Shown: positions 898 through 63,954, counted from the first letter of the stretch. The stretch: 64,000 nt of DNA from an uncultured Gammaproteobacteria bacterium (GCA_965231125.1 OZ246414.1:643924-707923); one strand, 5' to 3'. Numbers and translations: made by a program. The notes: a model not told the origin generated them from the sequence alone.

Positions 898-911
898 TTA
901 AAATCCTCAAG

Positions 912-1346: not shown

Positions 1347-1377
1347 TAAAGCAGGTGTTACCCTTTAAATCATTAAC

Positions 1378-1818: not shown

Positions 1819-1929
1819 AGATATTCACCCCCTTTCGAATGTCATTATTTTTCGAACGAATAGAAATTAATTTCTGCGAATGGAATGGGAGAATTTGAAG
1901 TAAAATTGATCTTTTTTTTTGGGCAAGAT

Positions 1930-2733: not shown

Positions 2734-2761
2734 GATGCTAAATACATACTACAAGATCCAA

Positions 2762-3316: not shown

Positions 3317-3333
3317 ATCTCATAACTGATTCG

Positions 3334-4533
3334 TTAAAACGCGCTGGTTATATTGTATATCGGCAAGATGATTGAAATAACAAGTGCGGCAACCATAATC
3401 CCCAAAACTATCATTATCATTGGCTCAAGGGCGGTAGTGAGGTTTTTAACTTGGTTTTCCACCTCAAGTTCGTAATAATGGGAAACTTTATTCAAAACAT
3501 CATCCATTTTTCCGGTTTCCTCACCTACAGAGACCATCTGCGGAATAATTGGGGGGAAAGTATCATCAACAGAAAGAGCCTTCGACAGCGTCGTGCCTTT
3601 CTCCACTAACGTGGACGCTCTACTCACCGCTTGACGATGAAGGGCGTTGCTGGCGACATTTGCAGAAATCTTCAGGGCTTCTAATATTGGCACACCGGCA
3701 CCAACCAACGCACCTAAAGTGCGGGTAAGCTCTGTTAAAGAGGTGTCGCGATTTAGTTTACCCATTATTGGGATTTTTAGACTGATACGATCAATGAAAA
3801 GAGCTCCTTGCGGAGTTTTGCGATATCGGCGTAAAAGCCAAAAAGCAGCCACCATAATTAGAATCACCAACCACCAAAAATGGGTTGCGAAATCGCTTAC
3901 ACCTATTAAGATTCGAGTTGGAAGCGGCAGAGTAATTTTTAAATCAGTATAAAGTTGAGTAAGTTTCGGAACTACAAATATTAAAATTATTGAAGAGACA
4001 AGAAGCATTGCAAAAAGGATAATCACCGGGTATATAAACGCACCTTTAACTTTACCTTGAAAGTCGCGATCTTTTTCCAAAGTGTTCGCAAGATTAGTCA
4101 ACACTTGATCAAGTGTACCGGAACTTTCACCGGCTCTAACAACATTTATGTACGCTTGCGAAAACAAATCATCGTGTTTACTCAGCGACTCCGCAAAAGT
4201 ACTTCCGCCTTGAATATCTTCGGCAATGCTCCTAATAACTTCACCTAACTTTGGCTTTTCGGTTTGTTTTTGAAGAATTTGCAGAGAATCCGTAAGAGGA
4301 AGCCCAGAGTTAATCATCGTGGCCAGTTGCCTAGTGAAATTAGTAAGATCCCCTAAATTGACCCCACCAAAAAAAGTGGGCAAGCCGCCACCTTGTTTAT
4401 GGGCGGTAAGAGTTACTACTACAAAACCGCGCTCATGCAGAATCGAGGCAGCCGCTTTTGCGGTTCCCGCTTCAATCAAACCCTCTTTATTTACCCCCTT
4501 TTGGTCTCTAACAACATATTTAAATTGCAGCAT
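3334..4533 (-). CDS. pilC: type IV pilus assembly platform protein PilC (GspF family)
   Basis: 399 aa. N-terminus MLQFKYVVRDQKG... is typical of PilC. Two GspF-type repeats and three TM segments. Confidence 0.85.
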   Translation of the reverse strand: MLQFKYVVRDQKGVNKEGLIEAGTAKAAASILHERGFVVVTLTAHKQGGGLPTFFGGVNLGDLTNFTRQLATMINSGLPLTDSLQILQKQTEKPKLGEVIRSIAEDIQGGSTFAESLSKHDDLFSQAYINVVRAGESSGTLDQVLTNLANTLEKDRDFQGKVKGAFIYPVIILFAMLLVSSIILIFVVPKLTQLYTDLKITLPLPTRILIGVSDFATHFWWLVILIMVAAFWLLRRYRKTPQGALFIDRISLKIPIMGKLNRDTSLTELTRTLGALVGAGVPILEALKISANVASNALHRQAVSRASTLVEKGTTLSKALSVDDTFPPIIPQMVSVGEETGKMDDVLNKVSHYYELEVENQVKNLTTALEPMIMIVLGIMVAALVISIILPIYNITSAF

Positions 4534-4556
4534 AGGTTTTATCTATATTCGAACCT

Positions 4557-5621
4557 TTACTTAACTGTCTTTTTTACTTCCCTCATCAGTTCTTCAGACT
4601 TAAGGCTGTAGGACAAAGCAGTTTCAAGAGAAATTTTTCCTGAGCGTACTAAATCTGCCAGCGAAGTTTCTAAAGTGATCATTCCTAATTGAGTAGAGGT
4701 TTGAATGATATTATCAATGAGGTGGGTTTTGCCTTCCCGAATCACGTTTCGGACGGCGGAAGAGGCTAAAAGAATCTCTAGAGAAGGGTAGCGACCACCA
4801 CCAATCGCCGGAATCAATCTTTCTGAAACCACCGCCTCGAGAACGTTTGAAAGTTGGAGCCTAATCTGGTCTTGCTGGTTTTCCGGAAAAACGCCAACAA
4901 TACGATCAATCGTTTGCGCTGCTGAATTCGTGTGTAACGTTGCAAAAACTAAGTGTCCAGTTTCCGCAATTGTCAAAGCTGCCTCAATGGTTTCGTAATC
5001 TCGCATTTCCCCAATCAAAACTACATCTGGGTCCTCTCTTAACACACTACGCAAAGCTATTTCCCACGAATGCGTATCCAAATGCATTTCGCGCTGGGCA
5101 ATTAAAGCCTTTTTGGACGGATAGACATACTCGATCGGATCTTCCACCGTGACGATATGAACGGAACGGTTTTCATTTACTTCATTTAATATCGAAGATA
5201 TAGTTGTTGATTTACCGTGACCGGTTGGACCGGTTATCAATATAAATCCTTGACGAAGTTCCGCAAACCGTCTCATAACTTTAGGTAAGTGCAGTTCTTC
5301 AAATGTGGGTATTCGGTTTGGAATGAGTCGGAGAGCGGCCGACAGATATCCTTTTTGATAAAAAGCATTCACCCGGAAGCGGGCGACTTGTCCAAGAGCG
5401 AAGGAAAAATCAATCTCTTTATTAGTAGTTAAAAGTTCTTTTTGCTCTGGCGTACAAAGCGACAGAACCAACCGCTCTATATTTTCCGGGGTAGGGGATT
5501 CAAATTTTGTTATCGGCACTAGCTTTCCATCGATACGAAGGGTTGGGTAAACACCCACCATCAAATGGACATCAGATGCTCCTCGACGGAGTGCATCTTC
5601 TAAAATTTCCTGGATTCCCAT
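4557..5621 (-). CDS. pilT: twitching motility/retraction ATPase PilT
   Basis: N-terminus MGIQEILEDALRRGASDVHLMVGVYPTLRIDGKL, Walker A ILITGPTGHGKSTT, 354 aa. Typical PilT length and motifs. Confidence 0.9.
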   Translation of the reverse strand: MGIQEILEDALRRGASDVHLMVGVYPTLRIDGKLVPITKFESPTPENIERLVLSLCTPEQKELLTTNKEIDFSFALGQVARFRVNAFYQKGYLSAALRLIPNRIPTFEELHLPKVMRRFAELRQGFILITGPTGHGKSTTISSILNEVNENRSVHIVTVEDPIEYVYPSKKALIAQREMHLDTHSWEIALRSVLREDPDVVLIGEMRDYETIEAALTIAETGHLVFATLHTNSAAQTIDRIVGVFPENQQDQIRLQLSNVLEAVVSERLIPAIGGGRYPSLEILLASSAVRNVIREGKTHLIDNIIQTSTQLGMITLETSLADLVRSGKISLETALSYSLKSEELMREVKKTVK

Positions 5622-5685
5622 TAAACCTCCTTTGGTCTGTAAAGTTCAAAGCTCAAATATCAAATTAATTTTTGACATTTGTCAA

Positions 5686-7461
5686 TTATTCTATCGCCAC
5701 TCTCATTACTTCTTCCACAGTAGTTATTCCTTCCAAAACTTTCATATAACCATCCTGGATAATCGTAACCATTCCCTCTTCAATTGCGACCTTTTCAATA
5801 TTGTTTGAAGGAGACCTTTCTAAAATAAGTTTGCCAATCTTATCAGTCACCGACAAAACTTCAAAAATACCAATTCTTCCGCGGTAACCTGAACCTCCAC
5901 ATTTATCGCAACCGGCCCCTTTAAAAACTTTAAATTTTTTATCTATCTCCACCTCATGAACGTCTTTTTGCTCCTCTTGAGAGAGTTTTTTTACAAAATC
6001 TTTATGGCCAATTAAATTTCCGAGCACCTGCTTAAAATCAGCGATCACCTGATCAGCTGGTACGTATTCTTTTTTGCAATTATCGCAAATGCGACGAACG
6101 ACCCGCTGGGCGATAACAGCTGTTATTGAAGATGCAAGCAAAAAAGTCTCCATACCCATATCCAAAAGCCGAGGCAAAGCTCCGGCAGCGCTGCTGGTGT
6201 GAAGTGTTGAAAACACCAAATGGCCAGTAAGGGAAGCTTGAATAGCCAAGGCAGCTGTTTCTGAATCCCGAACCTCACCTACCATTACAATATTAGGGTC
6301 TTGACGTAAAAAACTGCGTAGCCCAGATGCAAAGGTAAGACCAGCGGTTGGATTGATTTGAACTTGGTTTACACCCGGAATTTGGTATTCTACCGGGTCC
6401 TCCAACGTAACAATATTTACCCTGGGCGAGTTTATTTTAGAAAGAGCTGCAAAAAGGGTAGTTGTTTTTCCGGAGCCCGTGGGCCCAGTTATTAAAATAA
6501 TACCGTTTGGTCTAGTTATAGCCTGTTCAAAAATGCGTAGCCCCGTTCCGCGTAAACCTAGCTCTTGCAAAGTCGGGGCAGAACCGGCTTTGGGCAGAAG
6601 CCGCATTACTATCTTTTCACCGTGAACCGTTGGTAGCGTAGAAATACGGAGATCTACTATTTTATCACCAAGTTTAAAGGTAAACCTCCCATCTTGGGGG
6701 ATTCTTTTTTCATCAATCTTCAAATTAGAAAGAATTTTAATTCTAGACACCAGTGCCTCATGAACCTTTTTTGGCAGGAAAAGCCTCTCTTGTAAGATTC
6801 CATCTATCCGATAACGGACCCGAGTTTTTTCTTCCAAAGGCTCGACATGAATATCACTGGCCCCACCTTTCATGGCGTATTCCACTAAAGTCGAGGCAAT
6901 TTTTGCGACTGGCGCCTCTTTAATTATCTCTTCAACTTTTCCCAAATCCTTAATTTCTTCTTTGGCCTCAACCGTACCTTCTTCCTCTTGTAAAGCAGCT
7001 GTAACTTCGGTGGTAAGACTCTGACCGTATTTATCCTGGATGGCTTGGATAATTAAAGAAGGGGTAGAAATAAAAGGTTTTATTCTCTTAACAGATTTTC
7101 TTTCAATAAACTCAACAACTTGTAAATCCAACGGATCCGACATTGCCACCGATAAAGTTCCGCTCTCCTTATCAAGCTCAAATGGGATTAGGGTGTAACG
7201 TCTCGCCACTGGCTCGGGAATAAGCTGCAACACATCAGCAGCAATAGGTTTGGTTGTAGGATTAATAAAAGAAATTCCAAGAAGCTCTCCTCTTGCAGCC
7301 GTAAGATCTTCAAGAGAGGCAAAGTTGTGCTCCATTAGAAGCTCTTCGACGGTCTTACCCGTATTTATGGATTCAAGTTTAACTAATGAAACTTTATCTT
7401 CGGTAAGCTTACCTTGTTCAAAAAGAATGTCGGCGACGCCTTTATCTGTTGTAGTTGCCAT
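5686..7461 (-). CDS. pilB: type IV pilus assembly ATPase PilB (GspE family)
   Basis: N-terminal T2SSE_N-like region, Walker A LITGPTGSGKTTT, tetracysteine CDNC...CDKCGGSGYRGR. 591 aa. Confidence 0.9.
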   Translation of the reverse strand: MATTTDKGVADILFEQGKLTEDKVSLVKLESINTGKTVEELLMEHNFASLEDLTAARGELLGISFINPTTKPIAADVLQLIPEPVARRYTLIPFELDKESGTLSVAMSDPLDLQVVEFIERKSVKRIKPFISTPSLIIQAIQDKYGQSLTTEVTAALQEEEGTVEAKEEIKDLGKVEEIIKEAPVAKIASTLVEYAMKGGASDIHVEPLEEKTRVRYRIDGILQERLFLPKKVHEALVSRIKILSNLKIDEKRIPQDGRFTFKLGDKIVDLRISTLPTVHGEKIVMRLLPKAGSAPTLQELGLRGTGLRIFEQAITRPNGIILITGPTGSGKTTTLFAALSKINSPRVNIVTLEDPVEYQIPGVNQVQINPTAGLTFASGLRSFLRQDPNIVMVGEVRDSETAALAIQASLTGHLVFSTLHTSSAAGALPRLLDMGMETFLLASSITAVIAQRVVRRICDNCKKEYVPADQVIADFKQVLGNLIGHKDFVKKLSQEEQKDVHEVEIDKKFKVFKGAGCDKCGGSGYRGRIGIFEVLSVTDKIGKLILERSPSNNIEKVAIEEGMVTIIQDGYMKVLEGITTVEEVMRVAIE

Positions 7462-16660: not shown

Positions 16661-17587
16661 TTATAGAGCATCCTTATTCCCGGAATGAAACGCGCGGTGG
16701 ACGTCTTTCAGTTGACGATTAGTAATATGAGTGTAAATTTGCGTTGTCGAAATATTGGCATGACCAAGCATTTCTTGGACGCTGCGAATATCCGCACCAT
16801 TAATTAAAAGGTCAGTGGCAAAAGAATGGCGGAGTGTATGAGGAGTCGCTTTAATTGGAATGTGCGCCTGTTTCACATATTTTTCCAAAATGCGTTCTAT
16901 ACTTCGCGGGGTCAATCTCATTTTCTCACCACCACGAGTGGGGTCCTCTTTCCCAGAGTAACGAATAAAAATTGGTTTGAAAACATCTTTTCTTTGAGCG
17001 AGATACTGACCAAGCCAATCCTTGGCGATGTCGGAAAGAAAAACGATTCTTTCCTTACGGCCTTTACCAATAACGCCAAATTCACCTTTATCGATATTGA
17101 CATGCTCTCGGTCAAGCCCGGCTAATTCACTAACACGCAATCCTGTTGAAAACAAAACTTCCAGAATTGCTTTGTCTCGCAAACCGTCAATCTTGGAAAT
17201 ATCCGGTGCGGAAAGTAGCCTGTCTAAATGTTCATCATCAAGCACTTTGATTGGTCGTGGCTCGGCATCACCAAGTTCTACTTTTTCCGCTGCCAAAGTC
17301 TCAATATCATGTTTAGCTAGGTAACGAAGAAAAGCTCGAAGAGCAATAACAAAATAATTTTGGGTAACTTTTTTTAAGGGTAAACCCGTCTTTTCATCGG
17401 CCCAGCGCGCGAGGAAAACCCGGTATTTCCGAACCGATTCATAGGTAATTTCGCCTGGGTCAACGTCGCCGGCAAACGCAAGAAATCGTTGTAGATAGTG
17501 GTCATAGTTACGAATAGTCAGCTGTGAAGCATTGCGTTCTACTTCCAGATATTCCAAAAAGTCGGTGATAAGTTTGGAAAGTTTCAT
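16661..17587 (-). CDS. xerD: tyrosine recombinase, XerD/XerC-like
   Basis: N-terminal SAM-like core-binding domain (FLEYLEVERNASQLTIRNYDHYLQRF). Catalytic domain with GLRVSEL, GKGRKERIV, HTLRHSFATDLL, LGHANISTTQIYTHI (R..H-R-Y). Confidence 0.85.
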   Translation of the reverse strand: MKLSKLITDFLEYLEVERNASQLTIRNYDHYLQRFLAFAGDVDPGEITYESVRKYRVFLARWADEKTGLPLKKVTQNYFVIALRAFLRYLAKHDIETLAAEKVELGDAEPRPIKVLDDEHLDRLLSAPDISKIDGLRDKAILEVLFSTGLRVSELAGLDREHVNIDKGEFGVIGKGRKERIVFLSDIAKDWLGQYLAQRKDVFKPIFIRYSGKEDPTRGGEKMRLTPRSIERILEKYVKQAHIPIKATPHTLRHSFATDLLINGADIRSVQEMLGHANISTTQIYTHITNRQLKDVHRAFHSGNKDAL

Positions 17588-19624: not shown

Positions 19625-20827
19625 TCATGCTGCTTTTCTTTTTCCGATTTCTAGTAGCACTGCCGGCATTACAGAATCTTTTCCAAATTTTTCCTTAAGG
19701 CGATCAACGCTTTTTTCCAAACCAAACCTTTTTTCCCGAACACTGTCAAACAAGGATTCTTGAACCCATCTGCCAGACGGTTGGCTAAACTGGGAAATCC
19801 CAATCCCGACCAGTCGCAATGGGGTTTTTCCGTCCCAAAGCTCTCTTAACAAAGTTTCACCAATCTCGTAAATTTCTTTCGTGATGTCTGTAGGGTAGGG
19901 AAGCACTCGTTGACGGGAGATGGTGCGAAAATCTCGGTAGCGAATGGCGACGTAAACGCAACGGCCCAAGTGGCCTTCGGCTCTCATCTCTTCACCAACT
20001 TTTTCTGAAAGTTTTTGCAACATCGCCAAAATAAATTGCGGGTCGTTACTATTTTTTTCAAAAGTTTCACTGCGAGAAACTGATTTCGCCGAGAGTCTCT
20101 CCTCAAACCAGACATTATCAACTCCATTGGCAGACCCCCAAATACTGACTACGTGTTTACCTAAAGGCTCAACCTTTTCAAATGGCAAGGACGCTATCTC
20201 TCCCAAAGTTCTGATACGCAGGCGGTGAAAATACTCTTCCATTTTCCGACCAATTCCAGGCAAATCTCGGACTGCTAAGGGAGCCAGAAATTCCTTTTCA
20301 GTTCCAGCCGGGACGTGCGTCAAACTATCTGGTTTTTGAAAATCTGAGGCAACTTTAGCAACTACTTTTGTGGCGGCAATGCCGATAGAGGCGACGATTC
20401 CAACTTCCGCTTTCACTTGTTCTTTAATTCTCTTGGCGACTTCTACCAAGTCTGGGTAAATCCAATCCGTCCCGGAAAAATCCAAAAAAGCTTCATCAAT
20501 CGAAACTTGCTCTACTTTTGGGGCGTATCGGGCGCAAATCGAAAAGACTTGATTAGACGCTTTTACATATTCGTCGTAGTGACCACCGACAACAATACAA
20601 CTTGGACAAAGTTTTAAAGCTTGAAAAAGGGGCATGCCGCTTTTGGCACCAAAGACTCGCGCTTCGTAAGAAGCAGTGGCAACAACACCGCGAGGAACGC
20701 TGCGCCCGTGCGGGTCCACCCGACCAACTAAAATTGGTTTTCCTTTTAAAGACGGGTTTAGCTTTTGCTCAACGCTAGCGAAAAAAGCGTCCAGATCTAG
20801 ATGCATCCAAGAAGCTCTGGCAGACAT
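19625..20827 (-). CDS. dinB: DNA polymerase IV (Y-family)
   Basis: MHLDLDAFFASVEQ catalytic Asp motif; VASIGIAATKVVAKVASD; little finger domain. Probable start is MSARAS with a GGAGAA RBS; the ORF is open to 20881. Confidence 0.9.
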   Translation of the reverse strand: MSARASWMHLDLDAFFASVEQKLNPSLKGKPILVGRVDPHGRSVPRGVVATASYEARVFGAKSGMPLFQALKLCPSCIVVGGHYDEYVKASNQVFSICARYAPKVEQVSIDEAFLDFSGTDWIYPDLVEVAKRIKEQVKAEVGIVASIGIAATKVVAKVASDFQKPDSLTHVPAGTEKEFLAPLAVRDLPGIGRKMEEYFHRLRIRTLGEIASLPFEKVEPLGKHVVSIWGSANGVDNVWFEERLSAKSVSRSETFEKNSNDPQFILAMLQKLSEKVGEEMRAEGHLGRCVYVAIRYRDFRTISRQRVLPYPTDITKEIYEIGETLLRELWDGKTPLRLVGIGISQFSQPSGRWVQESLFDSVREKRFGLEKSVDRLKEKFGKDSVMPAVLLEIGKRKAA

Positions 20828-20949
20828 AATTTTATTCTCCGAAAAGTGCCCGAAAAAGTCAATCCGAACAAACTGTATCATTTGACGTTGATCTAATTGA
20901 AATAGATGAATTTAGTTACGAGGAATGCTTAGCACAGCGCATCATAATA

Positions 20950-21120
20950 TAGGTGTGATATAATTCGCTCGCTGGAAGTAGGAGAGTAGTTCTGGCATCT
21001 CAACGGGTGTTGAGAAGGCAGCTTGGGTCTCTAAGCAATGCGGGTTGCCCGAACCCTAGAGTAGTTCGCACCCTGGTTGCCAACCATTTAACAACAAAAA
21101 ATACGAAAGGAGAAAGAACC
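20950..21120 (+). promoter_or_regulatory. long GC-rich structured 5' leader of the KAS gene
   Basis: -10-like GATATAAT at ~20952, then ~160 nt with hairpins CTCAACGGGTGTTGAG and GGGTTGCCCGAACCC before the AAGGAG RBS. Confidence 0.3.
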
Positions 21121-22434
21121 TTGTCACAACTAGACGAGTACTTCAAGAACCACCCGTTTAGACCAGGTTACCGAGTAGCGGTTGTGGGAACGGGAGCAGT
21201 GACGCCAATTGGCAATGACGTACTCACTTTCTGGGAAGGTTTACTAACTCAGAAGTGTGGCATTCAAAAGCTCGAGTTCCTTCACCCAAGCGTCCGTTGC
21301 TTGGTAGGCGGCTTGGTAAATTTCGACGAGGAAGGGTTCCGACAAGAGGAAATGGGCCCGGACAACAAAACCCCGCAGGGGAGGGCTATCGAAAGGGCAG
21401 AAAGAGCAAGTCTGCTTGGCTTGATGGCCGTTCGCGAAGCAACCAAACAGTGCCGGCTTCCCCGGGAGCTTTATGAACACACCGGCCTTCTCATCGGCAG
21501 CAATATTGCCGCAGCGGATAAAGTTGGCCTGGCGTATGCACAGTACGACGAGAACCCAAGATCCGTTAATGCCCTGTTGGCCATGCAAGGTATGCCCAAC
21601 GCTACGACCGGAGTTGTGTCCATAGTAGATGGTTTCCAGGGCGGGGGTTTTTCGCCTGCTTCGGCTTGCGCTACTGGGTCTCACGCCATCGGCCAGGGCT
21701 TCCTTTGGGTGAATGATGGAGTAGCCCCGGTAGTAATTGCCGGCGGGTGCGAATCCAGTTTCGTTCCACCTCTGCTCGCAAGCTTTGCTAATGTGCGAGC
21801 CACAACTGCGGATTACAACGACGAGCCCCTAAAAGCGTCAAGACCGTTTGATGCAAAGCGAAGTGGGTTCGTTCCGAGTGAAGGAGCAGGGGTGTTGGTA
21901 CTTATGACCGTTGACTTGGCAAAAGACCTGGGCCTTCCTATCTTGGCGGAATTGGTAGGTTACGGTCAAAGTTTCGACGCTCAGGACATGATGAACCCGA
22001 CTGGAGAAGGGGCCGCCAAGGCTATCCAACGGGCGTTGTGTGTAGCCAACCTTGTCGCTGGAATAAACGCCGAAGACGTAGACTACGTCAACGCTCACGC
22101 AACCTCCACACCTCAAGGTGACTCGGCTGAAGACGCCGCCATCAAACTAGCGCTGGGGGAAGACAAGGCTTACCAAACTCCAGTTTCATCGATCAAAGCG
22201 CAGATCGGCCACACCATGGGCGCTGCCGGTGGGGTGGAAAGCATTGCCACCATCATGGCTTTGCGGACAGGAATTCTTCCACCAACTGGAAATCTGGAAT
22301 TTCCAGACCCAGAGTGCGACCTGGATCACGTTTCTTCCGGACCACGCGAAACCAACCCGAGGGTTGCCGTCAAGAACTCCTTCGGTTTTGGCGGTACCAA
22401 TGCGAGCTTGGTATTTAAAGGGTGGGAAGAGTAG
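21121..22434 (+). CDS. beta-ketoacyl-ACP synthase I/II family (Cys-His-His KAS)
   Basis: Thiolase fold with active-site motifs ACATGSHAIGQG, NAHATSTPQGD, KAQIGHTMGAAG and C-terminal GFGGTNASLVF. TTG start with an AAGGAG RBS; the ORF is open from 21007. GC ~56%. Confidence 0.85.
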   Translation: MSQLDEYFKNHPFRPGYRVAVVGTGAVTPIGNDVLTFWEGLLTQKCGIQKLEFLHPSVRCLVGGLVNFDEEGFRQEEMGPDNKTPQGRAIERAERASLLGLMAVREATKQCRLPRELYEHTGLLIGSNIAAADKVGLAYAQYDENPRSVNALLAMQGMPNATTGVVSIVDGFQGGGFSPASACATGSHAIGQGFLWVNDGVAPVVIAGGCESSFVPPLLASFANVRATTADYNDEPLKASRPFDAKRSGFVPSEGAGVLVLMTVDLAKDLGLPILAELVGYGQSFDAQDMMNPTGEGAAKAIQRALCVANLVAGINAEDVDYVNAHATSTPQGDSAEDAAIKLALGEDKAYQTPVSSIKAQIGHTMGAAGGVESIATIMALRTGILPPTGNLEFPDPECDLDHVSSGPRETNPRVAVKNSFGFGGTNASLVFKGWEE

Positions 22435-22454
22435 AGAAGACACACGGACCAAAA

Positions 22455-22500
22455 GCCCTGCAGCTGGTTTGCAACCGCAAACTTTGCTGCAGGGCTTTAA
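22455..22500. terminator. convergent hairpin terminator
   Basis: AAGCCCTGCAGCTGGTTTGCAACCGCAAACTTTGCTGCAGGGCTT long inverted repeat between the KAS and SNase gene ends. Confidence 0.5.
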
Positions 22501-22506
22501 CTTTAA

Positions 22507-23130
22507 TTAGTAACAGGAGGACCAAAGACCTTTGTTATTTTCTTTGGCATACTGTTGGTCTTGGCTAAGTCGATCTTCATATTTGACATCCGGTGGAAAA
22601 GGATCGGCGTAAGCGTAACCTTGCTTAACTAAAAACTCGTTTATAAAAATGTCTTTTCCATTATCGGACGGCAACCAAACGTAGCGAAGCAGCCGGCCGT
22701 ATTTATCCCGCTCAGAAACGTCTTTGGTGAGGCGCACTTTTTTTCCTTCAACAAGTTTTTTATTTTCGGCAGAAGCCTCTTCCCCAAAACACTGTACTGG
22801 CCGGCGGGGATCCACCGTCTCGGGCGTGTTGATTCCGATGTAACGAACCTTAGCGCCACCTTCAAGTTCGATAGTGTCGCCGTCAACAACACGCGTAACC
22901 AAAACTAAATTTTCCTCACTTTTGTCTTTGGCAGCAGCAACTTTACCTTCAGAGCTTTTAGAATTTATTACCGGCTGCGGCAAGGGATGCGTATTGGTGA
23001 CTTCTGTTGTGTCAGAAGATTTTACTGCAGATGGACTTCCTTTATCGGTCGGAACGCTCGGCGAAAAAAGAATTCCGATGCCGGCGATTATTAAGGCCAG
23101 ACTAATAAGAGCGAAAAAACCTTTCTTCAT
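22507..23130 (-). CDS. secreted thermonuclease (staphylococcal nuclease/SNase family)
   Basis: Signal/TM N-terminus; SNase core VVDGDTIELEGGAKVRYIGINTPE...YGRLLRYVWL...NEFLVKQGYAYA. Confidence 0.8.
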   Translation of the reverse strand: MKKGFFALISLALIIAGIGILFSPSVPTDKGSPSAVKSSDTTEVTNTHPLPQPVINSKSSEGKVAAAKDKSEENLVLVTRVVDGDTIELEGGAKVRYIGINTPETVDPRRPVQCFGEEASAENKKLVEGKKVRLTKDVSERDKYGRLLRYVWLPSDNGKDIFINEFLVKQGYAYADPFPPDVKYEDRLSQDQQYAKENNKGLWSSCY

Positions 23131-54266: not shown

Positions 54267-54406
54267 CGTAAAGTTTCACCCCCTTCCAAATATCACGAAA
54301 ATTCTATTCTCCGATAGCTAAATAGTCAATACACCCAAAAATTGACCTAGTTTGATATAATAACACTGCTCAATCAATTACCGTGATGAATCGAAAGGAG
54401 AAAGGG

Positions 54407-54750
54407 TTGAACGGAGAAAATCTACTTCTCGCTAAGTGGGACGAAATAGCATCTGTCCTGAAAGCAGAAATCGATCCACATACCCGGGATATTAAGGTGC
54501 AGGAGGGAGACCTCGTTCTATAGATTTTCAGAGCAGGTGCGGCAAACAACAACTTATCCTTCTTACACATAAAGGAAGGCAGCCGGCCAGTTGGACCAAT
54601 GATCGAATACGGCCCTGTCCTAGATGTTGGATTTGAAAGAGACCATGAGGAAGACCCTGACGGGAACGTAGTAATCATCGAATTAGGACAGGAATTGATC
54701 TGGGATGTAGAGATCTACCGCGATACAAAAGTTACACTCAGCTCGCCCTA
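54407..54750 (+). pseudogene. ~115-codon ORF interrupted by a single in-frame TAG (apparent nonsense mutation)
   Basis: AAAGGAGAAAGGG RBS then TTG. Reads ...NGENLLLAKWDEIASVLKAEIDPHTRDIKVQEGDLVL*IFRAGAANNNLSFLHIKEGSRPVGPMIEYGPVLDVGFERDHEEDPDGNVVIIELGQELIWDVEIYRDTKVTLSSP. Both halves are in one frame in my reading. Confidence 0.3.
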
Positions 54751-55300
54751 GTAAAGATTGCTGCTGGCAGACCTTGGGTAAACCAAGTTTAGGCCAGCTT
54801 TTTTCTTTTTCAAGATTTTTATAACTTGAATCTAAAAACACCAATATTGATTGGTATCTCAACCTATTTTTGACACTTTACCTACAAAGTCCAGGGGCTA
54901 GGAGGCTAGCGATTTTCAACATTAATTGCCACTTTTGCCTTATCTAACAGTCTTTTTGGTAATTTTACGGAAGTAACTCCAGAAAAAATTTTTCCAATAA
55001 AGTGGAAAAAGAGAATAGCCCCAAACTAACTAAGGGAAAATAAAGTCTGCTTCAGGCAGGGGAAATAAAATTTTATAAATATATCCCGGTGGGGAGCCTA
55101 GTAACATGTCGCATAAGATACATTGTGCGACGTAGTATTAAATTGAGTCTGGATCAGTAAGAACGAGAGAAGTGGCGTTAGGGAAAAGGAAAAAATTTGT
55201 CTTGTAGTTTATTTAAAACACTTTACACTTCTATAAGTAGTCGTCTTTTATTCAAAGTCGGCACCTGGGCTATTACAGGACGTCGTTTTTAGCTTTCTTA

Positions 55301-55360
55301 AGCGCAGAGCGCGAAGCGATCTTCAGTCCGAAGGGCGCAGATCGCAAAGCGATCTATTTT
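55301..55360. repeat. two ~21-nt direct repeats, each a stem-loop, in a gene-poor AT-rich region
   Basis: GCGCAGAGCGCGAAGCGATCT and GCGCAGATCGCAAAGCGATCT. The second (AGATCGCAAAGCGATCT) is a perfect 7-bp hairpin followed by ATTTTG. Confidence 0.4.
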
Positions 55361-55693
55361 GCTTGTTACTACGATCAATATTTTAACTTTTACCCTTGAA
55401 ATATTTATAATTTGCTACCCATATAGACGTAAGAGGAAGTAGCACTCTACCAAGAGGTGCGTCAGCACCGAAAGTCTTTCGGGTTTTTTTGGATCGGGCG
55501 ATTAATTTAGTAATCTGTACTACACCCTATAGTTCAAACTTTCCACACATGAAAACTAACTATATCACACTACATCACTATCCAGCTCAGCAATAATTGC
55601 AATCCTCCAAAAAGGGGACTCGCCCGCCCCACTCCTCTACTCTAACTCGCCTGCCCGCTTTTTTTACTTTTGACTTTTGAATTTTTTAATTTG

Positions 55694-58892: not shown

Positions 58893-59144
58893 TTATTTTT
58901 TGTAGACGCTTTGGCGGTGGATAATTGATACGATATAAATTTTCTTTTTGTCTACGGTAAATGTAATCCTGTAAGGCCAAGCCCTAACCGCGAATAAACC
59001 TTCAAACTCACCACGAAGTTTTTTGGAAAAAACGAATGGGTCGGTTTTTAGTCTTTCAAAAATACGATTGATTTTACTTTTATCTGAGAAAGATAGTTTT
59101 TCGTACTGGCGAGAGGCTTGCTTGGTTAAGAAAAGTCTGAACAT
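58893..59144 (-). CDS. relE: RelE/ParE-family type II toxin
   Basis: 83 aa; ...GEFEGLFAVRAWPYRITFTVDKKKIYIVSIIHRQSVYKK is the RelE/ParE fold signature. Directly follows the antitoxin gene. Confidence 0.75.
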   Translation of the reverse strand: MFRLFLTKQASRQYEKLSFSDKSKINRIFERLKTDPFVFSKKLRGEFEGLFAVRAWPYRITFTVDKKKIYIVSIIHRQSVYKK

Positions 59145-59405
59145 TTATTCTTTGGCGCTTTTCCATTCCACTACCTCACCCTTTTTTAAATCCAAAAGTC
59201 CTTTTCGAATAGACTTTACTTCTTCATTATTCTCTAAAATATTCAAAGTCTCTTCCCAACCCTCTAATTCATCGATGCTAATTAGAGCCACTTTAGACTT
59301 GCCCTTTTTAGTAATTATCACTCGCCTATTGGTTTCTTCAACTTCATCAATAAGCTGTGTAAGTTTTGCCCTCGCTTCAGTAGCGGGAATAGTATTAGTA
59401 GACAT
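59145..59405 (-). CDS. yefM: Phd/YefM-family antitoxin
   Basis: MSTNTIPATEARAKLTQLIDEVEETNRRVIITKKGKSKVALISIDELEGWEETLNIL is a typical Phd/YefM sequence. The ORF is open to 59441. Confidence 0.7.
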   Translation of the reverse strand: MSTNTIPATEARAKLTQLIDEVEETNRRVIITKKGKSKVALISIDELEGWEETLNILENNEEVKSIRKGLLDLKKGEVVEWKSAKE

Positions 59406-59524
59406 ACACCAAACTTTACAGAAAAATGTAAAAAATGTCAATATCCTAAGCTCATCCTAATCTAAGTTGAAGGATTAGTTAAAGAATTTGCTTGCAGTGC
59501 TTGCTTTGGGTTTAGCGAAGAGAA

Positions 59525-60187
59525 CTAGTTGAACTTGAAGGTCGAAAGCATTAAATTAAGTATGTGAAGTATGGTAGTTTTATCAGAGGGATTTCCTCCC
59601 CAAGTTGGGACAAAAAAGTAAACATTATCACCTTTCTTAAGCACTACAGCTATTTCTTCTGAAATGTTACCTTCAGCAACCGAGGTTGCTCTTAGTGCCT
59701 CGACACCATCTATTTTAATTGTGGACTTGGATTGAAAAATAGTCCCTGATGGCATGTAAACGTTTTTCAATTCCTCATCTAAAGTACCACCAGAGGCTTT
59801 TCTTACATTTATTGATATATCTTTATATATTACGCGACCACGAGTGAAATAAAGATTATTATCTGAAGATACAAATGTAACCCCACCTTTAGCTGTCCCA
59901 CTACTATTCTTGGGATATTCTTTGACACCAAAATATTTGGGATATTTTACAGAAAATCCAAGCTTAGAGTTTGTAAATGTTTTCCAATCTGCAGTTTCGT
60001 CTTTAGGTGTGGTATTAGTTGTTGCAGTCGGTTCGGCAGTTGATGTTTGGCTTTGGACATACCAGTAAATACCGCCCCCAATAATTGTAACTGCAACTAG
60101 AATAGTGATAACAACACCAATTATCTTTTTCCAATTAATCCCGGAGGTAGTTGCGGGTGCGTTTGATTGCGGTGCGTCTTCAGGCAT
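59525..60187 (-). CDS. membrane-anchored hypothetical protein (signal anchor + extracytoplasmic domain)
   Basis: TM (IIGVVITILVAVTIIGGGIYWYV) then a Thr-rich linker and a ~150-aa domain. Confidence 0.45.
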   Translation of the reverse strand: MPEDAPQSNAPATTSGINWKKIIGVVITILVAVTIIGGGIYWYVQSQTSTAEPTATTNTTPKDETADWKTFTNSKLGFSVKYPKYFGVKEYPKNSSGTAKGGVTFVSSDNNLYFTRGRVIYKDISINVRKASGGTLDEELKNVYMPSGTIFQSKSTIKIDGVEALRATSVAEGNISEEIAVVLKKGDNVYFFVPTWGGNPSDKTTILHILNLMLSTFKFN

Positions 60188-60214
60188 AAGTTAATTATAC
60201 GCTAACCCATTTTT

Positions 60215-61177
60215 TTAGGCAAGCTCGTCCTCGGCAACGCCGGCCGGCCTTTGAGGTTTCGGCTGCTCCGCCGCTTTTACTTCTGGAGCCGGTGGTGCTG
60301 TTGGTTGTGCTGCCGATTGTGGTTGTACCTTCTCTTTTACTTCAGGGCTTGCGGCGGCCACCGGAGCTATTTTTTCTTCCTCCCTTTCTTTAACTTCTTT
60401 GGTTGGCGGAGCACTTTGAACCGGAACTACCTTTTCTTCTTTACGTTCTTCCTTGGGAACCTCCACTTTCTCTACCGGAGCTTCCTTTTTTGGCGGGGCT
60501 ACTGGAGCTTTGGCTGCCTCTTCTTTTTTCTTTTCAATCACATGCTTAGGTGAAGGCTTGTGCGCAGGCTTTTTCTCTTCTTCTTTTTCTTTTGTCTCTA
60601 CCCTATCCGGCTTTTCTTCTTTAGGTTCTTCGCTTACCGCTCCTACCGAAACTTCTGGGACTGTGGGTTTTTCACGCACCGGTGGTTCCTTACCAACTGC
60701 CGCTTCTACCGCTCCCCAACCAACCTGCAAGTTTTTTGCTGGTAATATTAAAACTACTTCATCACCGACGGCAACATTAAAATGGTCGACGGCGGCAGGA
60801 AGAACTCGGTAAGAGCCCTCGGGTGTAACCGCGTGAAACTTTCCGTCTTTTTTGGTCAGAACTCCTTTAGTCTTGTAGCGTTTAACGTGTTCAAGCTGCT
60901 TAAATCTTTTTTCTTTACCTTCCTCAACTAATTTAAGGACATCGCCCACCACTAACAAACTTTTGGATGCATAATTTGCCGGTACCGGATACTTTTCGCC
61001 GGTCTCCGCTACCATACTCTCACCGTCAAAAGCACCGGTCACTCCGGGAAGAACTTTTTTCTCGACGGCTCCCCTCTCTCCTCCCTGCTCCAAATCGTTA
61101 AGAAGCTGTTTGGCGAGCCTAATGCTGCTCTCCGAGGCCGAAAGCGCCTGACGAATCAATTCAATCTGTTTGGCCAT
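60215..61177 (-). CDS. hypothetical protein with Pro/Glu/Lys-rich low-complexity C-terminal half
   Basis: ~170-aa N-terminal globular region, then ~150 aa of PEK-rich repeats (KEEKPDRVETKEKEEEKKPAHKPSPK...). Confidence 0.45.
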   Translation of the reverse strand: MAKQIELIRQALSASESSIRLAKQLLNDLEQGGERGAVEKKVLPGVTGAFDGESMVAETGEKYPVPANYASKSLLVVGDVLKLVEEGKEKRFKQLEHVKRYKTKGVLTKKDGKFHAVTPEGSYRVLPAAVDHFNVAVGDEVVLILPAKNLQVGWGAVEAAVGKEPPVREKPTVPEVSVGAVSEEPKEEKPDRVETKEKEEEKKPAHKPSPKHVIEKKKEEAAKAPVAPPKKEAPVEKVEVPKEERKEEKVVPVQSAPPTKEVKEREEEKIAPVAAASPEVKEKVQPQSAAQPTAPPAPEVKAAEQPKPQRPAGVAEDELA

Positions 61178-61224
61178 ACTTTATTACCTCCTTTTGAACT
61201 AATAACCATGAACCAAGAACCAAC

Positions 61225-63954
61225 CTACTCTTTTGGCACAGTCTCTGATGAAATAGCCGCTTCCTCTTCTTGTCTAGTCCCCTCTTGTTTGCGTTCTTGG
61301 ATAACACTTGCCGGCTCAGGAAATCTAAAAATTTCCACTTCCTCACCTTGTTTCATGTTAGGTAGTCCGGGTACATTTTCCCGAACAAATGGCTTTGGCG
61401 CGGGTGCTGCCGGTGCCGGTGTTACAGGCATCGCCGGGCCCACACTCGTCGCAACCTCGATAGGAGCCTCTCTTCGTTCACCGTCAACCGGAACTTCTTG
61501 CACTTTTACTTCTTCCTGTACCGCCCAGGGGGGAGGCAATGGCGGCGCCCCTGGCCGAAACTTCGTCTCGGTCCATTTTTTAATTACTTTTTCAATTCGT
61601 TCAACATCCTTGCCGTATTTCTGGCGCGAAAGGGCTACTGCCCTATCTCTTAGTCCAGTCGCATCTGCAAACGACGGTAAAGACCGCGCGGAAAATGGCT
61701 TCGAGGATTGATCATCCACTTGGAGTTTTAAGTACATTTCGTAACGACCAAGATTTATTATGTCGTTTTCCAAAAATACTGGCGTGAACTCTCTTTCTAA
61801 AAAGTGGGCGTCTGTCGGCCCAACTCCAAAGGATATCAACGTGCCGACGTTCCCAAAAACTGCGTCTTTAACCGTCTCCGGCATTTGTTCGATATACTGG
61901 TGAGTTATAGTAAGATCCAAACGATATTTTCGGGCCTCAGATAGAACTACTGCAAAAGAATCGGTCGCAAAATTCTGAAACTCATCAGCGTAAAGGAAAA
62001 AATCGCGCCTTTGTTCCTCGGGAATATCTACTCTGCGCATCGCCGCAAATTCAAGCTGGGAAACAATCATTGCACCGAGAAGCGAAGTGTTGTTGGATCC
62101 AATTCTACCGGTTGCCAAGTTAACAAAGAAAATCTTACCGCCGTTAATTATCTCATCAACTTTTATTGTACTTTTAGGCTGTCCAACAATATTTCTAATT
62201 AACTCAGAATTCAAAAATTGGCCGACTTTGTTTTGAATTGGGCTGATTGCCTCGGTAATAAGACGCTCATTTCCTTCCATTCTCGCAAACTCATTGTTCC
62301 AAAAAGCTTTCATTTGTGGGTCGCTAATAAGACCGACAATATATTTACGGTAATCTTTATCAGTCAAAAGTCTGGTGACGGAAAGTAGCGAGGTGTTCGG
62401 CACCTCAAGCAAAGTGAGAATACAATTCTTCAAAATATACTCAAGCCTTGGACCCCAGCTTTCCGCAAAATATTTTTTAAAGACATCGACAAGGGAATCC
62501 GCCATCAGGGTTCTTTGTTTTGGATCCACCATTTCCAACATGTTAAGAGCCACTGGGTAGTCGGCATCCGCAGGGTTAAAAATTACTACGTCGTCAAGAC
62601 GGTTTTGCGGGACGAACTCCAAGAGTTCATCGATAAGTTGGCCGTGAGGATCCAGTACCGCCACTCCTTCACCAGCGCGCATGTCTTGAATTACCATGTT
62701 TTTAATCAAGGTACTCTTCCCAGTACCCGTTTTTCCAACAATGTACATGTGCTTGCGGCGATCTGGCTTTTGAATACCAAATTTTACTTGGACATCGCGA
62801 AAGATTGTCTCCCCCACGATGTTAACATTCGTTGTTGGTAGATTTAGTGGCGGCTCCCCTTTCTTAGCCCTTGTCCAAGAAATTGTCGGCGTCTCCACAC
62901 TAATATTTGGCAAGTGGAAAATGGACGCAAGTTCCTCAATATTAAGAATATAATCTCCGGAGTGGGGTTGGGGCGGGAAAAGCCTTTTTTGATAAGCCGT
63001 TAGTAAAGTTGAGGGCTCGGCTGCCTCAAAATCCTGAACGAACCCGTTTAAACTAGCCGTCGAGAACTGTTTAAATGAAGCGACAACACTTGAAAGTTTG
63101 TGGACCGCTTCTTCTTTAGAACTTCCCAAAGCGACAATTCTAATTTTCACCTCAAAGCCCAATTTTGAAAGCTTATTTTCAATCATCTTAAGATCTAACT
63201 CTTGTCCTGCCGAAAGTTTGGGTGGCGGAGCCGGGCGCTCTGGCCCAGGTGGAGGTTGCGGCCCCCGGGCAATGTAAGGAAAAATATTAGCTCCAATTGA
63301 AACTATGTGTTTTCCAACATCGACCATTATATCTTGGGGTTGAATGCTAATTGGAGAAAGACCATCTCGAACCATCTTCACGTAGTCATGGCCTCGCTCT
63401 TGCCAAAAATCGTCAACTGGTCGAATAAGGTATTGGATCCAAGCTTGCTCAATTGGTTTTTGCGTGGCCAGAGCACTAGTTATAGCGGACAATGGGTCTA
63501 CCTCAAAGTCCCGAAAAGTTTTAATTGGAAATGTAAAATCTTTGGCCAAGTCCAGTTCTGTAGCGGCAACGTTCGCCTGCGACCCAACACTTTTGGTGTA
63601 GTCAATTGCTTCTCTTATCTCCGCGTCCGGATATTGGGCGTAGATTTGGGATTCAACAAAATTTTTAAAGGTAACTGGCGTATAAACGTAAAAGCGCACT
63701 CCTTCTATGGAGGAGGCCATTTCCAGGGAAAAATGTTCTTGGGCACCGGGAGTAAAACGCAGTAGCCCGTGCAAGGAGGCAAACATTTGTTCAGCGGCTA
63801 TGGGGAGACGTTCGTTTTCACGTGGGAGTTGGATAGAAAGAAGAATTCCTTCTTCAATGTCGGATTTTTTTATACCAAGCTCACTTTTGCGTGCTTCTCT
63901 CCAAGCCCACAAAAACGAGATAAAAACGGCGATTGCTATTAAAAATATAAACAT
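61225..63954 (-). CDS. membrane-anchored P-loop NTPase, TraD/TraG/VirD4 (type IV coupling protein)-like or HerA/DUF87-like
   Basis: N-terminal TM (FIFLIAIAVFISFLWAW), ~380-aa domain, Walker A MYIVGKTGTGKSTL followed by VLDPHGQL, Walker B FFLYADEFQNF, and a Pro-rich C-terminal tail. 909 aa. Confidence 0.55.
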   Translation of the reverse strand: MFIFLIAIAVFISFLWAWREARKSELGIKKSDIEEGILLSIQLPRENERLPIAAEQMFASLHGLLRFTPGAQEHFSLEMASSIEGVRFYVYTPVTFKNFVESQIYAQYPDAEIREAIDYTKSVGSQANVAATELDLAKDFTFPIKTFRDFEVDPLSAITSALATQKPIEQAWIQYLIRPVDDFWQERGHDYVKMVRDGLSPISIQPQDIMVDVGKHIVSIGANIFPYIARGPQPPPGPERPAPPPKLSAGQELDLKMIENKLSKLGFEVKIRIVALGSSKEEAVHKLSSVVASFKQFSTASLNGFVQDFEAAEPSTLLTAYQKRLFPPQPHSGDYILNIEELASIFHLPNISVETPTISWTRAKKGEPPLNLPTTNVNIVGETIFRDVQVKFGIQKPDRRKHMYIVGKTGTGKSTLIKNMVIQDMRAGEGVAVLDPHGQLIDELLEFVPQNRLDDVVIFNPADADYPVALNMLEMVDPKQRTLMADSLVDVFKKYFAESWGPRLEYILKNCILTLLEVPNTSLLSVTRLLTDKDYRKYIVGLISDPQMKAFWNNEFARMEGNERLITEAISPIQNKVGQFLNSELIRNIVGQPKSTIKVDEIINGGKIFFVNLATGRIGSNNTSLLGAMIVSQLEFAAMRRVDIPEEQRRDFFLYADEFQNFATDSFAVVLSEARKYRLDLTITHQYIEQMPETVKDAVFGNVGTLISFGVGPTDAHFLEREFTPVFLENDIINLGRYEMYLKLQVDDQSSKPFSARSLPSFADATGLRDRAVALSRQKYGKDVERIEKVIKKWTETKFRPGAPPLPPPWAVQEEVKVQEVPVDGERREAPIEVATSVGPAMPVTPAPAAPAPKPFVRENVPGLPNMKQGEEVEIFRFPEPASVIQERKQEGTRQEEEAAISSETVPKE

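Follow-up and report, generated by a model that had tools for sequence, protein, structure and literature searches.

Gene content of the locus

The window analysed here is a stretch of 64,000 nucleotides (GCA_965231125.1 OZ246414.1:643924-707923), deposited under the name of an uncultured Gammaproteobacteria bacterium, and is chromosomal DNA of a Woykebacteria-like Patescibacterium of the candidate phyla radiation (CPR). Its last part (positions 58893-63954) carries five minus-strand genes, encoding a 909-residue membrane-anchored ATPase of the type IV coupling protein (T4CP) family, a conserved 320-residue partner, a 220-residue PsbP-like protein and a toxin–antitoxin (TA) pair. CPR bacteria possess an essential type IV secretion system (T4SS) whose gene cluster lacks a recognisable coupling protein and relaxase. 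The ATPase described here belongs to a widespread class of 'orphan' coupling ATPases; it descends over its full length from the coupling proteins of plasmids, few genes in its neighbourhood are as conserved, and in several phyla it is paired with a predicted single-stranded nucleic-acid-binding adaptor bearing a conserved putative docking tip. The ATPase gene comprises the following parts (TM, transmembrane; NBD, nucleotide-binding domain; AF2, AlphaFold2; pLDDT, predicted local distance difference test).

61225-63954, minus strand: coupling-protein-family ATPase, membrane-anchored, 909 residues (DUF8128, TrwB/VirD4-like NBD and disordered tail)
63895-63954, minus strand: single predicted N-terminal TM helix, residues 1-20 (Kyte-Doolittle windows above 1.6 at residues 1-3 only; AF2 helix at residues 2-26)
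62830-63867, minus strand: DUF8128 alpha/beta N-terminal domain, residues ~30-375, interrupted by a Pro-rich loop at residues ~230-248
61555-62817, minus strand: RecA-like NBD, residues 380-800
62713-62736, minus strand: Walker A motif GKTGTGKS, residue 407
62140-62523, minus strand: all-alpha insertion within the NBD, residues 478-605 (AF2 model)
61978-62001, minus strand: Walker B motif FFLYADEF, residues 652-659
61228-61554, minus strand: Pro/Glu-rich disordered C-terminal tail, residues 801-909 (pLDDT below 50 from residue 820; composition)

Much of an earlier note on this stretch holds at this level. The five minus-strand genes, the ATPase motifs, the one TM helix, the Pro-rich tail and the PEK-rich tail of the neighbouring protein were all confirmed at their coordinates, and the Phd/YefM and RelE call was correct, the pair being a Phd/YefM-type antitoxin and a ParE/RelE-superfamily toxin with Pfam scores above cutoff. 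The likeness to type IV coupling proteins also stands, with TrwB_AAD_bind above cutoff and a whole architecture as in the coupling proteins of plasmid transfer clusters. Among the profiles named there, TrwB_AAD_bind and DUF87 scored above their cutoffs and TraG-D_C and FtsK_SpoIIIE below.

Architecture and family of the ATPase

Aligned with 53 sequences in all, the homologues show no variation in the Walker A, DPHG (residues 435-438) and Walker B motifs. Because the basic stretch REARKSELGIKK follows the TM helix, the positive-inside rule predicts that the remainder of the protein is cytoplasmic. The AF2 model, confident over residues ~30-820 (mean pLDDT 81), shows a RecA-like NBD with an inserted all-alpha bundle, which places the modelled protein in the VirD4/VirB4/HerA branch of the FtsK-HerA superfamily with a T4CP domain plan. 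The C-terminal tail, with 20 prolines among the last 110 residues, is not conserved among relatives, whose C-termini are variable.

Family models recognised the ATPase through TrwB_AAD_bind (46.9 bits, cutoff 20.5) and DUF87 (33.3 bits, cutoff 23.2). T4SS-DNA_transf (19.7 vs 20.1 bits), TraG-D_C (17 vs 22) and FtsK_SpoIIIE (17 vs 24) fell below cutoff, and the NCBIfam TraD and VirD4-like equivalogs scored 25-43 bits against cutoffs of 250-647. These scores under the curated cutoffs mark the ATPase as a distant T4CP member, recognised by TrwB_AAD_bind and DUF87 only. A phmmer search of the PDB matched TrwB at 2.5e-5. The N-terminal domain had no Pfam match because the version scanned does not contain PF26449 (DUF8128); a DUF8128 profile compared with PDB sequences gave spurious alpha-actinin matches only. 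The domain itself is widespread, with 2,397 representative clusters. The ATPase has neither a VirB4-type N-terminal domain nor the multi-pass membrane domain and gamma (KOPS-binding) domain of FtsK, and neither a HerA HAS barrel nor a NurA partner was seen.

Conservation and gene order across CPR

In a survey of one genome per GTDB species, relatives of the ATPase turned up in at least 548 species representatives. A word-indexed protein search returned 2,250 relatives, of which the best 120 show 50-100% identity over at least 60% of the length (most 84-100%); among these 120, nearly all carry DUF8128 and TrwB_AAD_bind, and most carry DUF87 too. Exact sequence matching locates the window on the 68.7-kb JGI metagenome contig Ga0136847_10125626, and an identical ATPase is encoded on a 915-kb NCBI contig. 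The nearest named relatives belong to Candidatus Woykebacteria (~78% identity), and more distant ones to CPR3, WWE3, Dojkabacteria, Berkelbacteria and other Patescibacteria.

The loci of the 80 best ATPase relatives were surveyed with hidden Markov models and phmmer on six-frame open reading frames (ORFs). A conserved gene order, LytR-like / ATPase / (partner) / YebC / RuvC, is present in Woykebacteria, CPR3, WWE3, Dojkabacteria and Berkelbacteria, and the same order is found in pre-annotated loci of Woykebacteria, an unclassified Patescibacterium and CPR3. In Dojkabacteria-type loci, YebC directly follows the ATPase. The counts for individual genes were as follows.

LytR-like gene, directly upstream of the ATPase: 66 of 80 loci (several loci counted without it end at a contig boundary)
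YebC, downstream of the ATPase: 66 of 80 loci
RuvC, downstream of the ATPase: 51 of 80 loci
DUF5656, downstream of the ATPase: 27 of 80 loci
320-residue partner, directly downstream of the ATPase (upstream in one locus): 38 of 80 loci
PsbP-like gene, anywhere: 0 of 80 loci
Phd antitoxin, anywhere: 0 of 80 loci
ParE toxin, anywhere: 0 of 80 loci

The ATPase is more conserved than the neighbouring YebC and RuvC: median identity to the window protein in close and distant relatives, respectively, is 73% and 49% for the ATPase, 58% and 38% for YebC, and 51% and 36% for RuvC. Single-sequence phmmer searches, which have limited sensitivity, found no match to VirB4-like proteins, relaxases or Tcp proteins in 1.2 Mb of related loci and the window, and five annotated related loci contain no relaxase or mating-pair-formation (MPF) genes. 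The gene annotation of an independent assembly (L001) extends past the window end and lists a Na+/H+ exchanger, a 350-residue membrane protein of LytR_C-like type and a 207-residue unknown protein; neither this region nor the rest of the window yielded a relaxase or VirB4. In CPR, the ATPase is a vertically inherited, strongly constrained core chromosomal gene, with no relaxase detected nearby.

In Parcubacteria-type CPR, DUF8128 is a separate gene of ~425 residues, followed by a TrwB-like ATPase gene of ~510-540 residues, so that fused and split forms represent one system. In the two such loci inspected (L012 8001-11056 and L013 8001-12900), the split genes are adjacent in one and ~2 kb apart in the other. 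The upstream neighbour of the DUF8128 gene in both is a Sigma70_r4-HARE-HTH protein, with SecDF further upstream, a context that differs from the LytR-like/YebC/RuvC setting of the window ATPase.

Homologues on plasmids and in phages

Turning to homologues outside CPR, a 64-kb Bacillus subtilis plasmid (NRS6116_2) encodes a 913-residue 'DUF87 domain-containing protein' with 25% identity over ATPase residues 76-792 (E 2e-42), which the DUF8128 profile matches with 97.5% probability. This gene lies directly upstream of a 'replication-relaxation family protein' gene, and genes for TcpD/TcpE and an AAA_10 protein (VirB4-like, 285 bits) are located nearby. Assignment of this plasmid to the pLS20 family was rejected: the pLS20 T4CP is shorter and has two TM helices, and the plasmid considered here has Tcp-type genes. 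On the haloarchaeal megaplasmid pNVE500 of Natrinema, a pilin gene is followed further along by a 'conjugal transfer protein', a 395-residue DUF8128 protein (95.4%) and a TraM-recognition-domain ATPase. The best plasmid match to the ATPase has 31% identity, and none reaches 60%.

The phage family phrog_5156 matches the ATPase over residues 71-791 (profile positions 75-804 of 824; E 1.2e-74). Its members, which include gp156 of Bacillus phage G (L098) and ORF23 of phage D6E (L099), show ~22-24% identity to the ATPase. In the jumbo phage G, gp156 is paired with gp155, a TraG-P-loop/AAA_10 ATPase; ORF23 of the temperate phage D6E has the lysis genes on one side and the integrase on the other, like an accessory gene of a lysogeny module. 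Since these homologues span the whole architecture and not the ATPase domain alone, the CPR protein is a distant full-length member of a family of long coupling proteins that bear DUF8128.

The 320-residue partner

The gene directly downstream of the ATPase encodes a protein with the following parts (OB, oligonucleotide/oligosaccharide-binding).

60215-61177, minus strand: conserved partner, 320 residues (start 47 nt after the ATPase stop; AGGAGG ribosome-binding site)
61088-61177, minus strand: conserved amphipathic N-terminal helix, residues 2-30
60698-61045, minus strand: two predicted tandem S1/cold-shock-type OB folds, residues 45-96 and 100-160 (AF2)
60218-60682, minus strand, including the tip: disordered K/E/P-rich linker, residues 166-315 (pLDDT ~50; composition)
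60218-60232, minus strand: acidic C-terminal tip EDELA

The first ~165 residues are conserved (39-59% identity in a four-locus alignment; hhalign 99.9% with the homologue from the CPR3 locus). The AF2 model, with pLDDT above 90 over residues 45-160, consists of the N-terminal helix and two barrels of five strands each, in which strand 3 is followed by a short helix, and the OB folds most resemble the S1 and cold-shock (CSD) domains that bind RNA. The conserved domain is basic (isoelectric point 8.7) and contains invariant NYASKS and FKQxEHVKR motifs. On the basis of this modelled fold, the partner is predicted to bind single-stranded nucleic acid, either RNA or single-stranded DNA (ssDNA).

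Of 155 residues of the tail, 32 are E, 26 P and 26 K, and the linkers of orthologues vary in length and sequence and cannot be aligned, whereas the last five residues conform to [DE][DE][DE]-L-x in 36 of 38 orthologues. In bacterial single-stranded DNA-binding protein (SSB), the acidic C-terminal tip recruits partner proteins. By analogy, the partner may dock on another protein through its tip, for which the neighbouring ATPase is the obvious candidate.

No family in Pfam, NCBIfam, PADLOC or PHROGs matches the partner at the thresholds applied, and a permissive Pfam scan gave only a sub-threshold, apparently spurious match; its homologues carry no Pfam domain and are all named 'hypothetical'. 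A tblastn search found no match in plasmids.

The PsbP-like gene and the toxin–antitoxin pair

Three further genes lie downstream of the two-gene module.

59525-60187, minus strand: PsbP_2-like membrane-anchored protein, 220 residues (Pfam PsbP_2 34.1 bits, cutoff 27; predicted TM helix at residues ~16-45)
59145-59405, minus strand: Phd/YefM-family antitoxin, 86 residues from the ATG at 59405 (PhdYeFM_antitox 59 bits, cutoff 29.8; TIGR01552 54 bits)
58893-59144, minus strand: ParE/RelE-superfamily toxin, 83 residues (Pfam ParE_toxin 29 bits, cutoff 23)

The antitoxin ORF extends over 59145-59441, with the ATG at 59405 as its likely start; this gives the 86 residues called in the independent assembly (L001). 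Its stop codon abuts the toxin start (junction TAA ATG), the layout of a type II TA system, and both proteins match their family models. The toxin scored 19.7 bits against the YoeB model TIGR02116 (cutoff 51.8), and it may act either as a gyrase poison, like ParE, or as an mRNA interferase, like RelE/YoeB. The earlier note had grouped the ATPase, the 320-residue protein and the 220-residue protein in a three-gene operon. These three are not conserved as a unit: only the first two co-occur in relatives, and the 220-residue gene, with a separate promoter-like site (TTGCCT-17-TATAAT), is missing from every one of the 80 loci. Both the PsbP-like gene and the TA pair are local insertions, unrelated to the module, that separate it from the next conserved genes, those for a TPR protein, YebC and RuvC.

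In a closely related assembly (L004 14732-15037), a HepT-like toxin gene has been inserted between YebC and the TPR gene, whereas the Phd-ParE pair and PsbP-like gene of the window flank the TPR gene on its opposite side. A second toxin type in the same neighbourhood fits the view of TA cassettes as casual insertions here, and small accessory cassettes seem to have entered the surroundings of the TPR gene repeatedly.

Other features of the window

The remaining genes of the window are housekeeping genes, among them holB, gyrB, gyrA, SHMT, ClpB, YebC, RuvC, a Xer-like recombinase and pilus genes. A complete type IV pilus cluster (448-7461, minus strand) adjoins holB and gyrB and encodes several N_methyl pilins, the prepilin peptidase PilD, PilC (T2SSF), a PilT-like ATPase and a PilB-like ATPase (MshEN and T2SSE). 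The Xer-type tyrosine recombinase (Phage_int_SAM_1 and Phage_integrase; 16661-17587) lies ~40 kb from the ATPase; a Xer-type gene occurs a few genes downstream of the ATPase-YebC-(RuvC)-DUF5656 block in an unclassified Patescibacterium (L007 17159-18076) and in CPR3 (L014 10145-11074).

GC content peaks at 0.49-0.52 near 20000-23000, compared with ~0.43 elsewhere in the window; the peak covers a beta-ketoacyl synthase gene (21007-22434) and could reflect either the composition of that gene or foreign acquisition. Neither a tRNA nor an Rfam family was detected in the window, which therefore offers no integration site of the tRNA type. Promoter and terminator scans were not informative, since their counts were near the level of shuffled sequence: promoter sites showed a modest excess (13 vs 8.0 ± 2.7), and terminator sites were no more numerous than in shuffled sequence.

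Between the DUF1761 and DUF5656 genes, ~1.4 kb (54267-55693) contains no long ORFs, and the same gap is present in relatives. Its core (~55400-55650), which in minus-strand orientation occupies ~250 nt after the DUF5656 stop, shows strong nucleotide conservation in five Woykebacteria-like genomes, with the consensus TGATATAGTnTGATATAGTTAGTTTTCAyGyGTGGAAAGTnTCAAAACTATAGGGT, a conserved hairpin and a GATATAGT direct repeat. The gap also has a hairpin followed by a T-run that resembles a terminator on the plus strand. Covariation by RNAalifold is low because the sequences vary too little, and the gap has no Rfam match; the core may encode a small RNA that has escaped annotation, or may act as a regulatory site.

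Five of the related loci (L018, L019, L020, L022 and L023) come from public metagenome-assembled genomes whose titles read 'Candidatus Nanoarchaeia archaeon' or 'uncultured Gammaproteobacteria bacterium'. Since the locus in these genomes has 67-75% identity and the bacterial YebC-RuvC synteny, the taxonomic labels are almost certainly wrong.

Proposed role and alternatives

We propose, with confidence evenly poised, that a domesticated coupling ATPase and a nucleic-acid-binding adaptor serve the chromosomal CPR T4SS as substrate receptor and motor. The ancestor of the ATPase would have belonged to the conjugation systems of monoderm bacteria and archaea, and in CPR its gene would have become a vertically inherited, constrained core gene without a relaxase. 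The TM helix would tether the cytoplasmic DUF8128 domain and TrwB/VirD4-like ATPase, which, by analogy with TrwB, may assemble into a hexameric ring at the membrane. In Woykebacteria, CPR3 and WWE3, the ATPase and the cytoplasmic adaptor would constitute a two-gene module: the tandem OB folds of the adaptor could bind RNA or ssDNA, and its acidic tip and/or N-terminal helix could dock it onto the ATPase. The most likely role of the pair would be to take on a substrate, either nucleic acid or nucleoprotein, and to deliver it, with ATP, to a chromosomal CPR T4SS encoded elsewhere in the genome. Descent, conservation and adaptor pairing together yield a concrete and testable hypothesis—that the substrate is nucleic acid—and name two proteins with which to test it.

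In Agrobacterium VirB/D4, the coupling protein VirD4 is dispensable for pilus biogenesis, which would reconcile an essential T4SS with a dispensable T4CP. For Southlakia epibionticum, Wang et al. (2023, PMC10633639) showed that the T4SS cluster is essential and that no coupling or relaxase protein is recognisable in it. Their tables flag the 921-residue SEML1_0293 (TrwB_AAD_bind 402-719, DUF87 405-618; Table S1) as a core and Patescibacteria-enriched family and call it non-essential, but its normalized transposon-sequencing (Tn-seq) reads fall from 5817 to 2940 to 1372 over outgrowth. The upstream neighbour of SEML1_0293 is an essential Sigma70_r4-HARE-HTH protein (SEML1_0293/0294; PMC10633639). 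By length, domain coordinates and shared neighbour, SEML1_0293 is probably the orthologue of the window ATPase.

A survey of Patescibacteria (Quinonero-Coronel et al. 2025, PMC12102498) reports 5,713 VirD4-like T4CP homologues in 2,918 of 3,035 genomes, only 148 of them near virB4; VirB4 itself occurs in 2,417 of the genomes and relaxases number only 109. Linkage-free T4CP homologues are described as usual in CPR, the CPR T4SS nests within the monoderm/archaeal MPF-FATA class, and the list of VirB4-positive genomes includes Woykebacteria (class Microgenomatia) and Dojkabacteria (PMC12102498).

Several observations weigh against the proposed T4SS role. None of the loci examined has a T4SS gene close to the ATPase, which leaves coupling to the T4SS entirely a matter of inference. 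The number of genomes with T4CP homologues exceeds that with VirB4 by ~500, a difference of which genome incompleteness may explain part, and the same authors hold exaptation of the T4CP to another function to be possible (PMC12102498). The phrog_5156 homologues indicate that the family is not confined to conjugation. Dojkabacteria-type loci lack the partner beside the ATPase, and in the split-gene Parcubacteria loci hhalign comparison with the neighbouring genes did not find it (0.1-0.3%). Finally, the case for SEML1_0293 as an orthologue comes from its length, its domain coordinates and the shared neighbour rather than from a sequence comparison.

A more specific version of the proposal, in which the ATPase and tandem-OB adaptor are the cytoplasmic engine of relaxase-independent nucleic-acid traffic, loading or receiving single-stranded RNA or ssDNA at the essential CPR T4SS, is in our judgement rather unlikely. 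If true, it would provide a molecular handle on how CPR parasites exchange or harvest host nucleic acids.

An alternative that we consider fairly improbable is that the ATPase was exapted as a T4SS-independent DNA motor acting on its own chromosome, in segregation, dimer resolution or the processing of recombination intermediates, in the manner of FtsK/SpoIIIE or HerA and together with RuvC, YebC and sometimes Xer. The tight adjacency to YebC (66 of 80 loci) and RuvC (51 of 80), which in Dojkabacteria-type loci places YebC directly after the ATPase, is consistent with such a role, as are the Xer-like integrase genes a few genes downstream in L007 and L014 and the occurrence of T4CP homologues in more genomes than VirB4 (PMC12102498). 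However, streamlined CPR genomes can retain gene order without a functional link, and the neighbours are different in Saccharimonadia and Parcubacteria (SecDF and the Sigma70_r4-HARE-HTH protein). The FtsK gamma domain, the HerA HAS barrel and a NurA partner were not seen for the ATPase, and the probable orthologue is non-essential in Southlakia (PMC10633639). Replacement of FtsK by the ATPase was considered and is weakened by the report of ftsK in Saccharibacterium TM7x (PMC10768705) and by the sub-threshold FtsK_SpoIIIE score (17 vs 24 bits).

An import motor, in which the ATPase and OB partner pull host RNA or ssDNA inward as a source of nucleotides, either through a reversed T4SS (compare Helicobacter pylori ComB and archaeal Ced) or through a pilus/ComEC route, is quite unlikely. 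The resemblance of the partner OB folds to RNA-binding S1 and CSD domains and the conserved SSB-like layout would suit this role, and CPR bacteria lack nucleotide synthesis; a cultivated Patescibacterium takes up host RNA by an unresolved route (2026 preprint, bioRxiv 10.64898/2026.06.21.733656). A weak NCBIfam match to CedD, the DNA-translocating ATPase of Ced, points the same way, but it covers the P-loop only and reaches 30 bits against a cutoff of 600. Moreover, T4CPs are known as export-side receptors, the partner is missing from many lineages that carry the ATPase, the probable Southlakia orthologue is non-essential (PMC10633639), and deletion of comEC leaves Southlakia viability unaffected (PMC12857230).

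A role in defence or exclusion, like that of stand-alone homologues in accessory regions of temperate and jumbo Bacillus and Geobacillus phages or of HerA/DptH-type defence ATPases, appears very improbable. It would accommodate the full-length phrog_5156 match, the position of D6E ORF23 between lysis genes and integrase, and a PADLOC mad8 match (2.6e-11), but the PADLOC matches span the generic ATPase domain only, and the locus lacks an effector partner, for instance a nuclease or a Sir2 domain. Genes for defence tend to evolve fast and to be patchily distributed, whereas the ATPase is found in at least 548 species representatives of its clade, holds a fixed position in the 80 loci examined and is more conserved than its housekeeping neighbours.

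The earlier note read the ATPase, the two downstream genes and the TA pair as the edge of a conjugative or integrative element whose relaxase and VirB4 would lie past 63954. This reading is largely refuted and retains hardly any credibility: the T4CP-like ATPase, the frequent role of TA modules in stabilising mobile elements and the distant homologues within plasmid transfer clusters favour it, but the genes past the window end are those for the 207-residue unknown, the LytR_C-like protein and the Na+/H+ exchanger, the same chromosomal neighbourhood recurs across several CPR phyla with an ATPase that outconserves YebC and RuvC, the best plasmid identity is 31%, searches of the 1.2 Mb of related loci gave no VirB4-like or relaxase match, the locus shows no GC anomaly relative to the rest of the window, and the TA pair, there taken as a sign of mobility, is found in none of the 80 relatives. 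Conserved chromosomal synteny and a lack of mobile-element genes beyond the window, which the note itself had named as the observations that would count against its reading, are thus largely what was found. The other option offered by the note, a novel module for DNA or protein translocation, may still hold. The analysis corrects an easily made annotation error: in these genomes, a T4CP beside a TA module is not a mobile element.

Comparison with known systems

ATPases of this class have already been catalogued. Like the orphan Patescibacteria T4CPs (PMC12102498) and SEML1_0293 (PMC10633639), the window ATPase is chromosomal, distant from virB4 and without a relaxase, and it shares the 921-residue length class and Pfam coordinates of SEML1_0293. 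In Southlakia, unlike the window, the upstream neighbour is the Sigma70_r4-HARE-HTH protein and no partner is evident (PMC10633639). Both papers, in the portions consulted, count homologues without an account of DUF8128, the OB-fold partner or the LytR/ATPase/partner/YebC/RuvC synteny. 'DUF8128' appears in no paper of the searched literature, where no description of the OB partner was found either. New with respect to that literature are the end-to-end relationship of DUF8128 and NBD with the coupling proteins of plasmids, the strength of the constraint and of the synteny on the chromosome, and the conserved SSB-like tandem-OB partner.

Compared with TrwB of R388, VirD4 and TraD, the CPR ATPase shares a membrane-anchored N-terminus, a RecA-like NBD with Walker A and B motifs, an all-alpha insert and a TrwB_AAD_bind score above cutoff. 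It has one predicted TM helix, whereas canonical T4CPs usually have two, and so represents a variant T4CP form. It also differs in the ~350-residue DUF8128 domain between anchor and NBD, in its low identity to TrwB (~16%), and in being a vertically inherited core chromosomal gene without nearby relaxase, oriT or MPF genes.

Close parallels are the long DUF8128 coupling ATPases of B. subtilis NRS6116_2 and of haloarchaeal megaplasmids such as pNVE500 of Natrinema, which match the CPR protein in end-to-end architecture and length, and whose fused and split arrangements both recur within CPR. The plasmid versions lie beside annotated relaxase and VirB4-like, Tcp or pilin genes, unlike the CPR gene, and the OB-fold partner is absent from the plasmid loci. 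The phrog_5156 proteins share full-length homology with the ATPase but are carried by phages.

The partner, in turn, differs from bacterial SSB in having two predicted tandem S1/cold-shock-like OB folds instead of one SSB-type fold, an additional N-terminal helix, and a [DE]3-L-x tip in place of DDDIPF, and the two show no sequence similarity. In layout, however, they are alike: each joins an OB module through a long, disordered, low-complexity linker to a short, conserved acidic tip that includes a hydrophobic residue.

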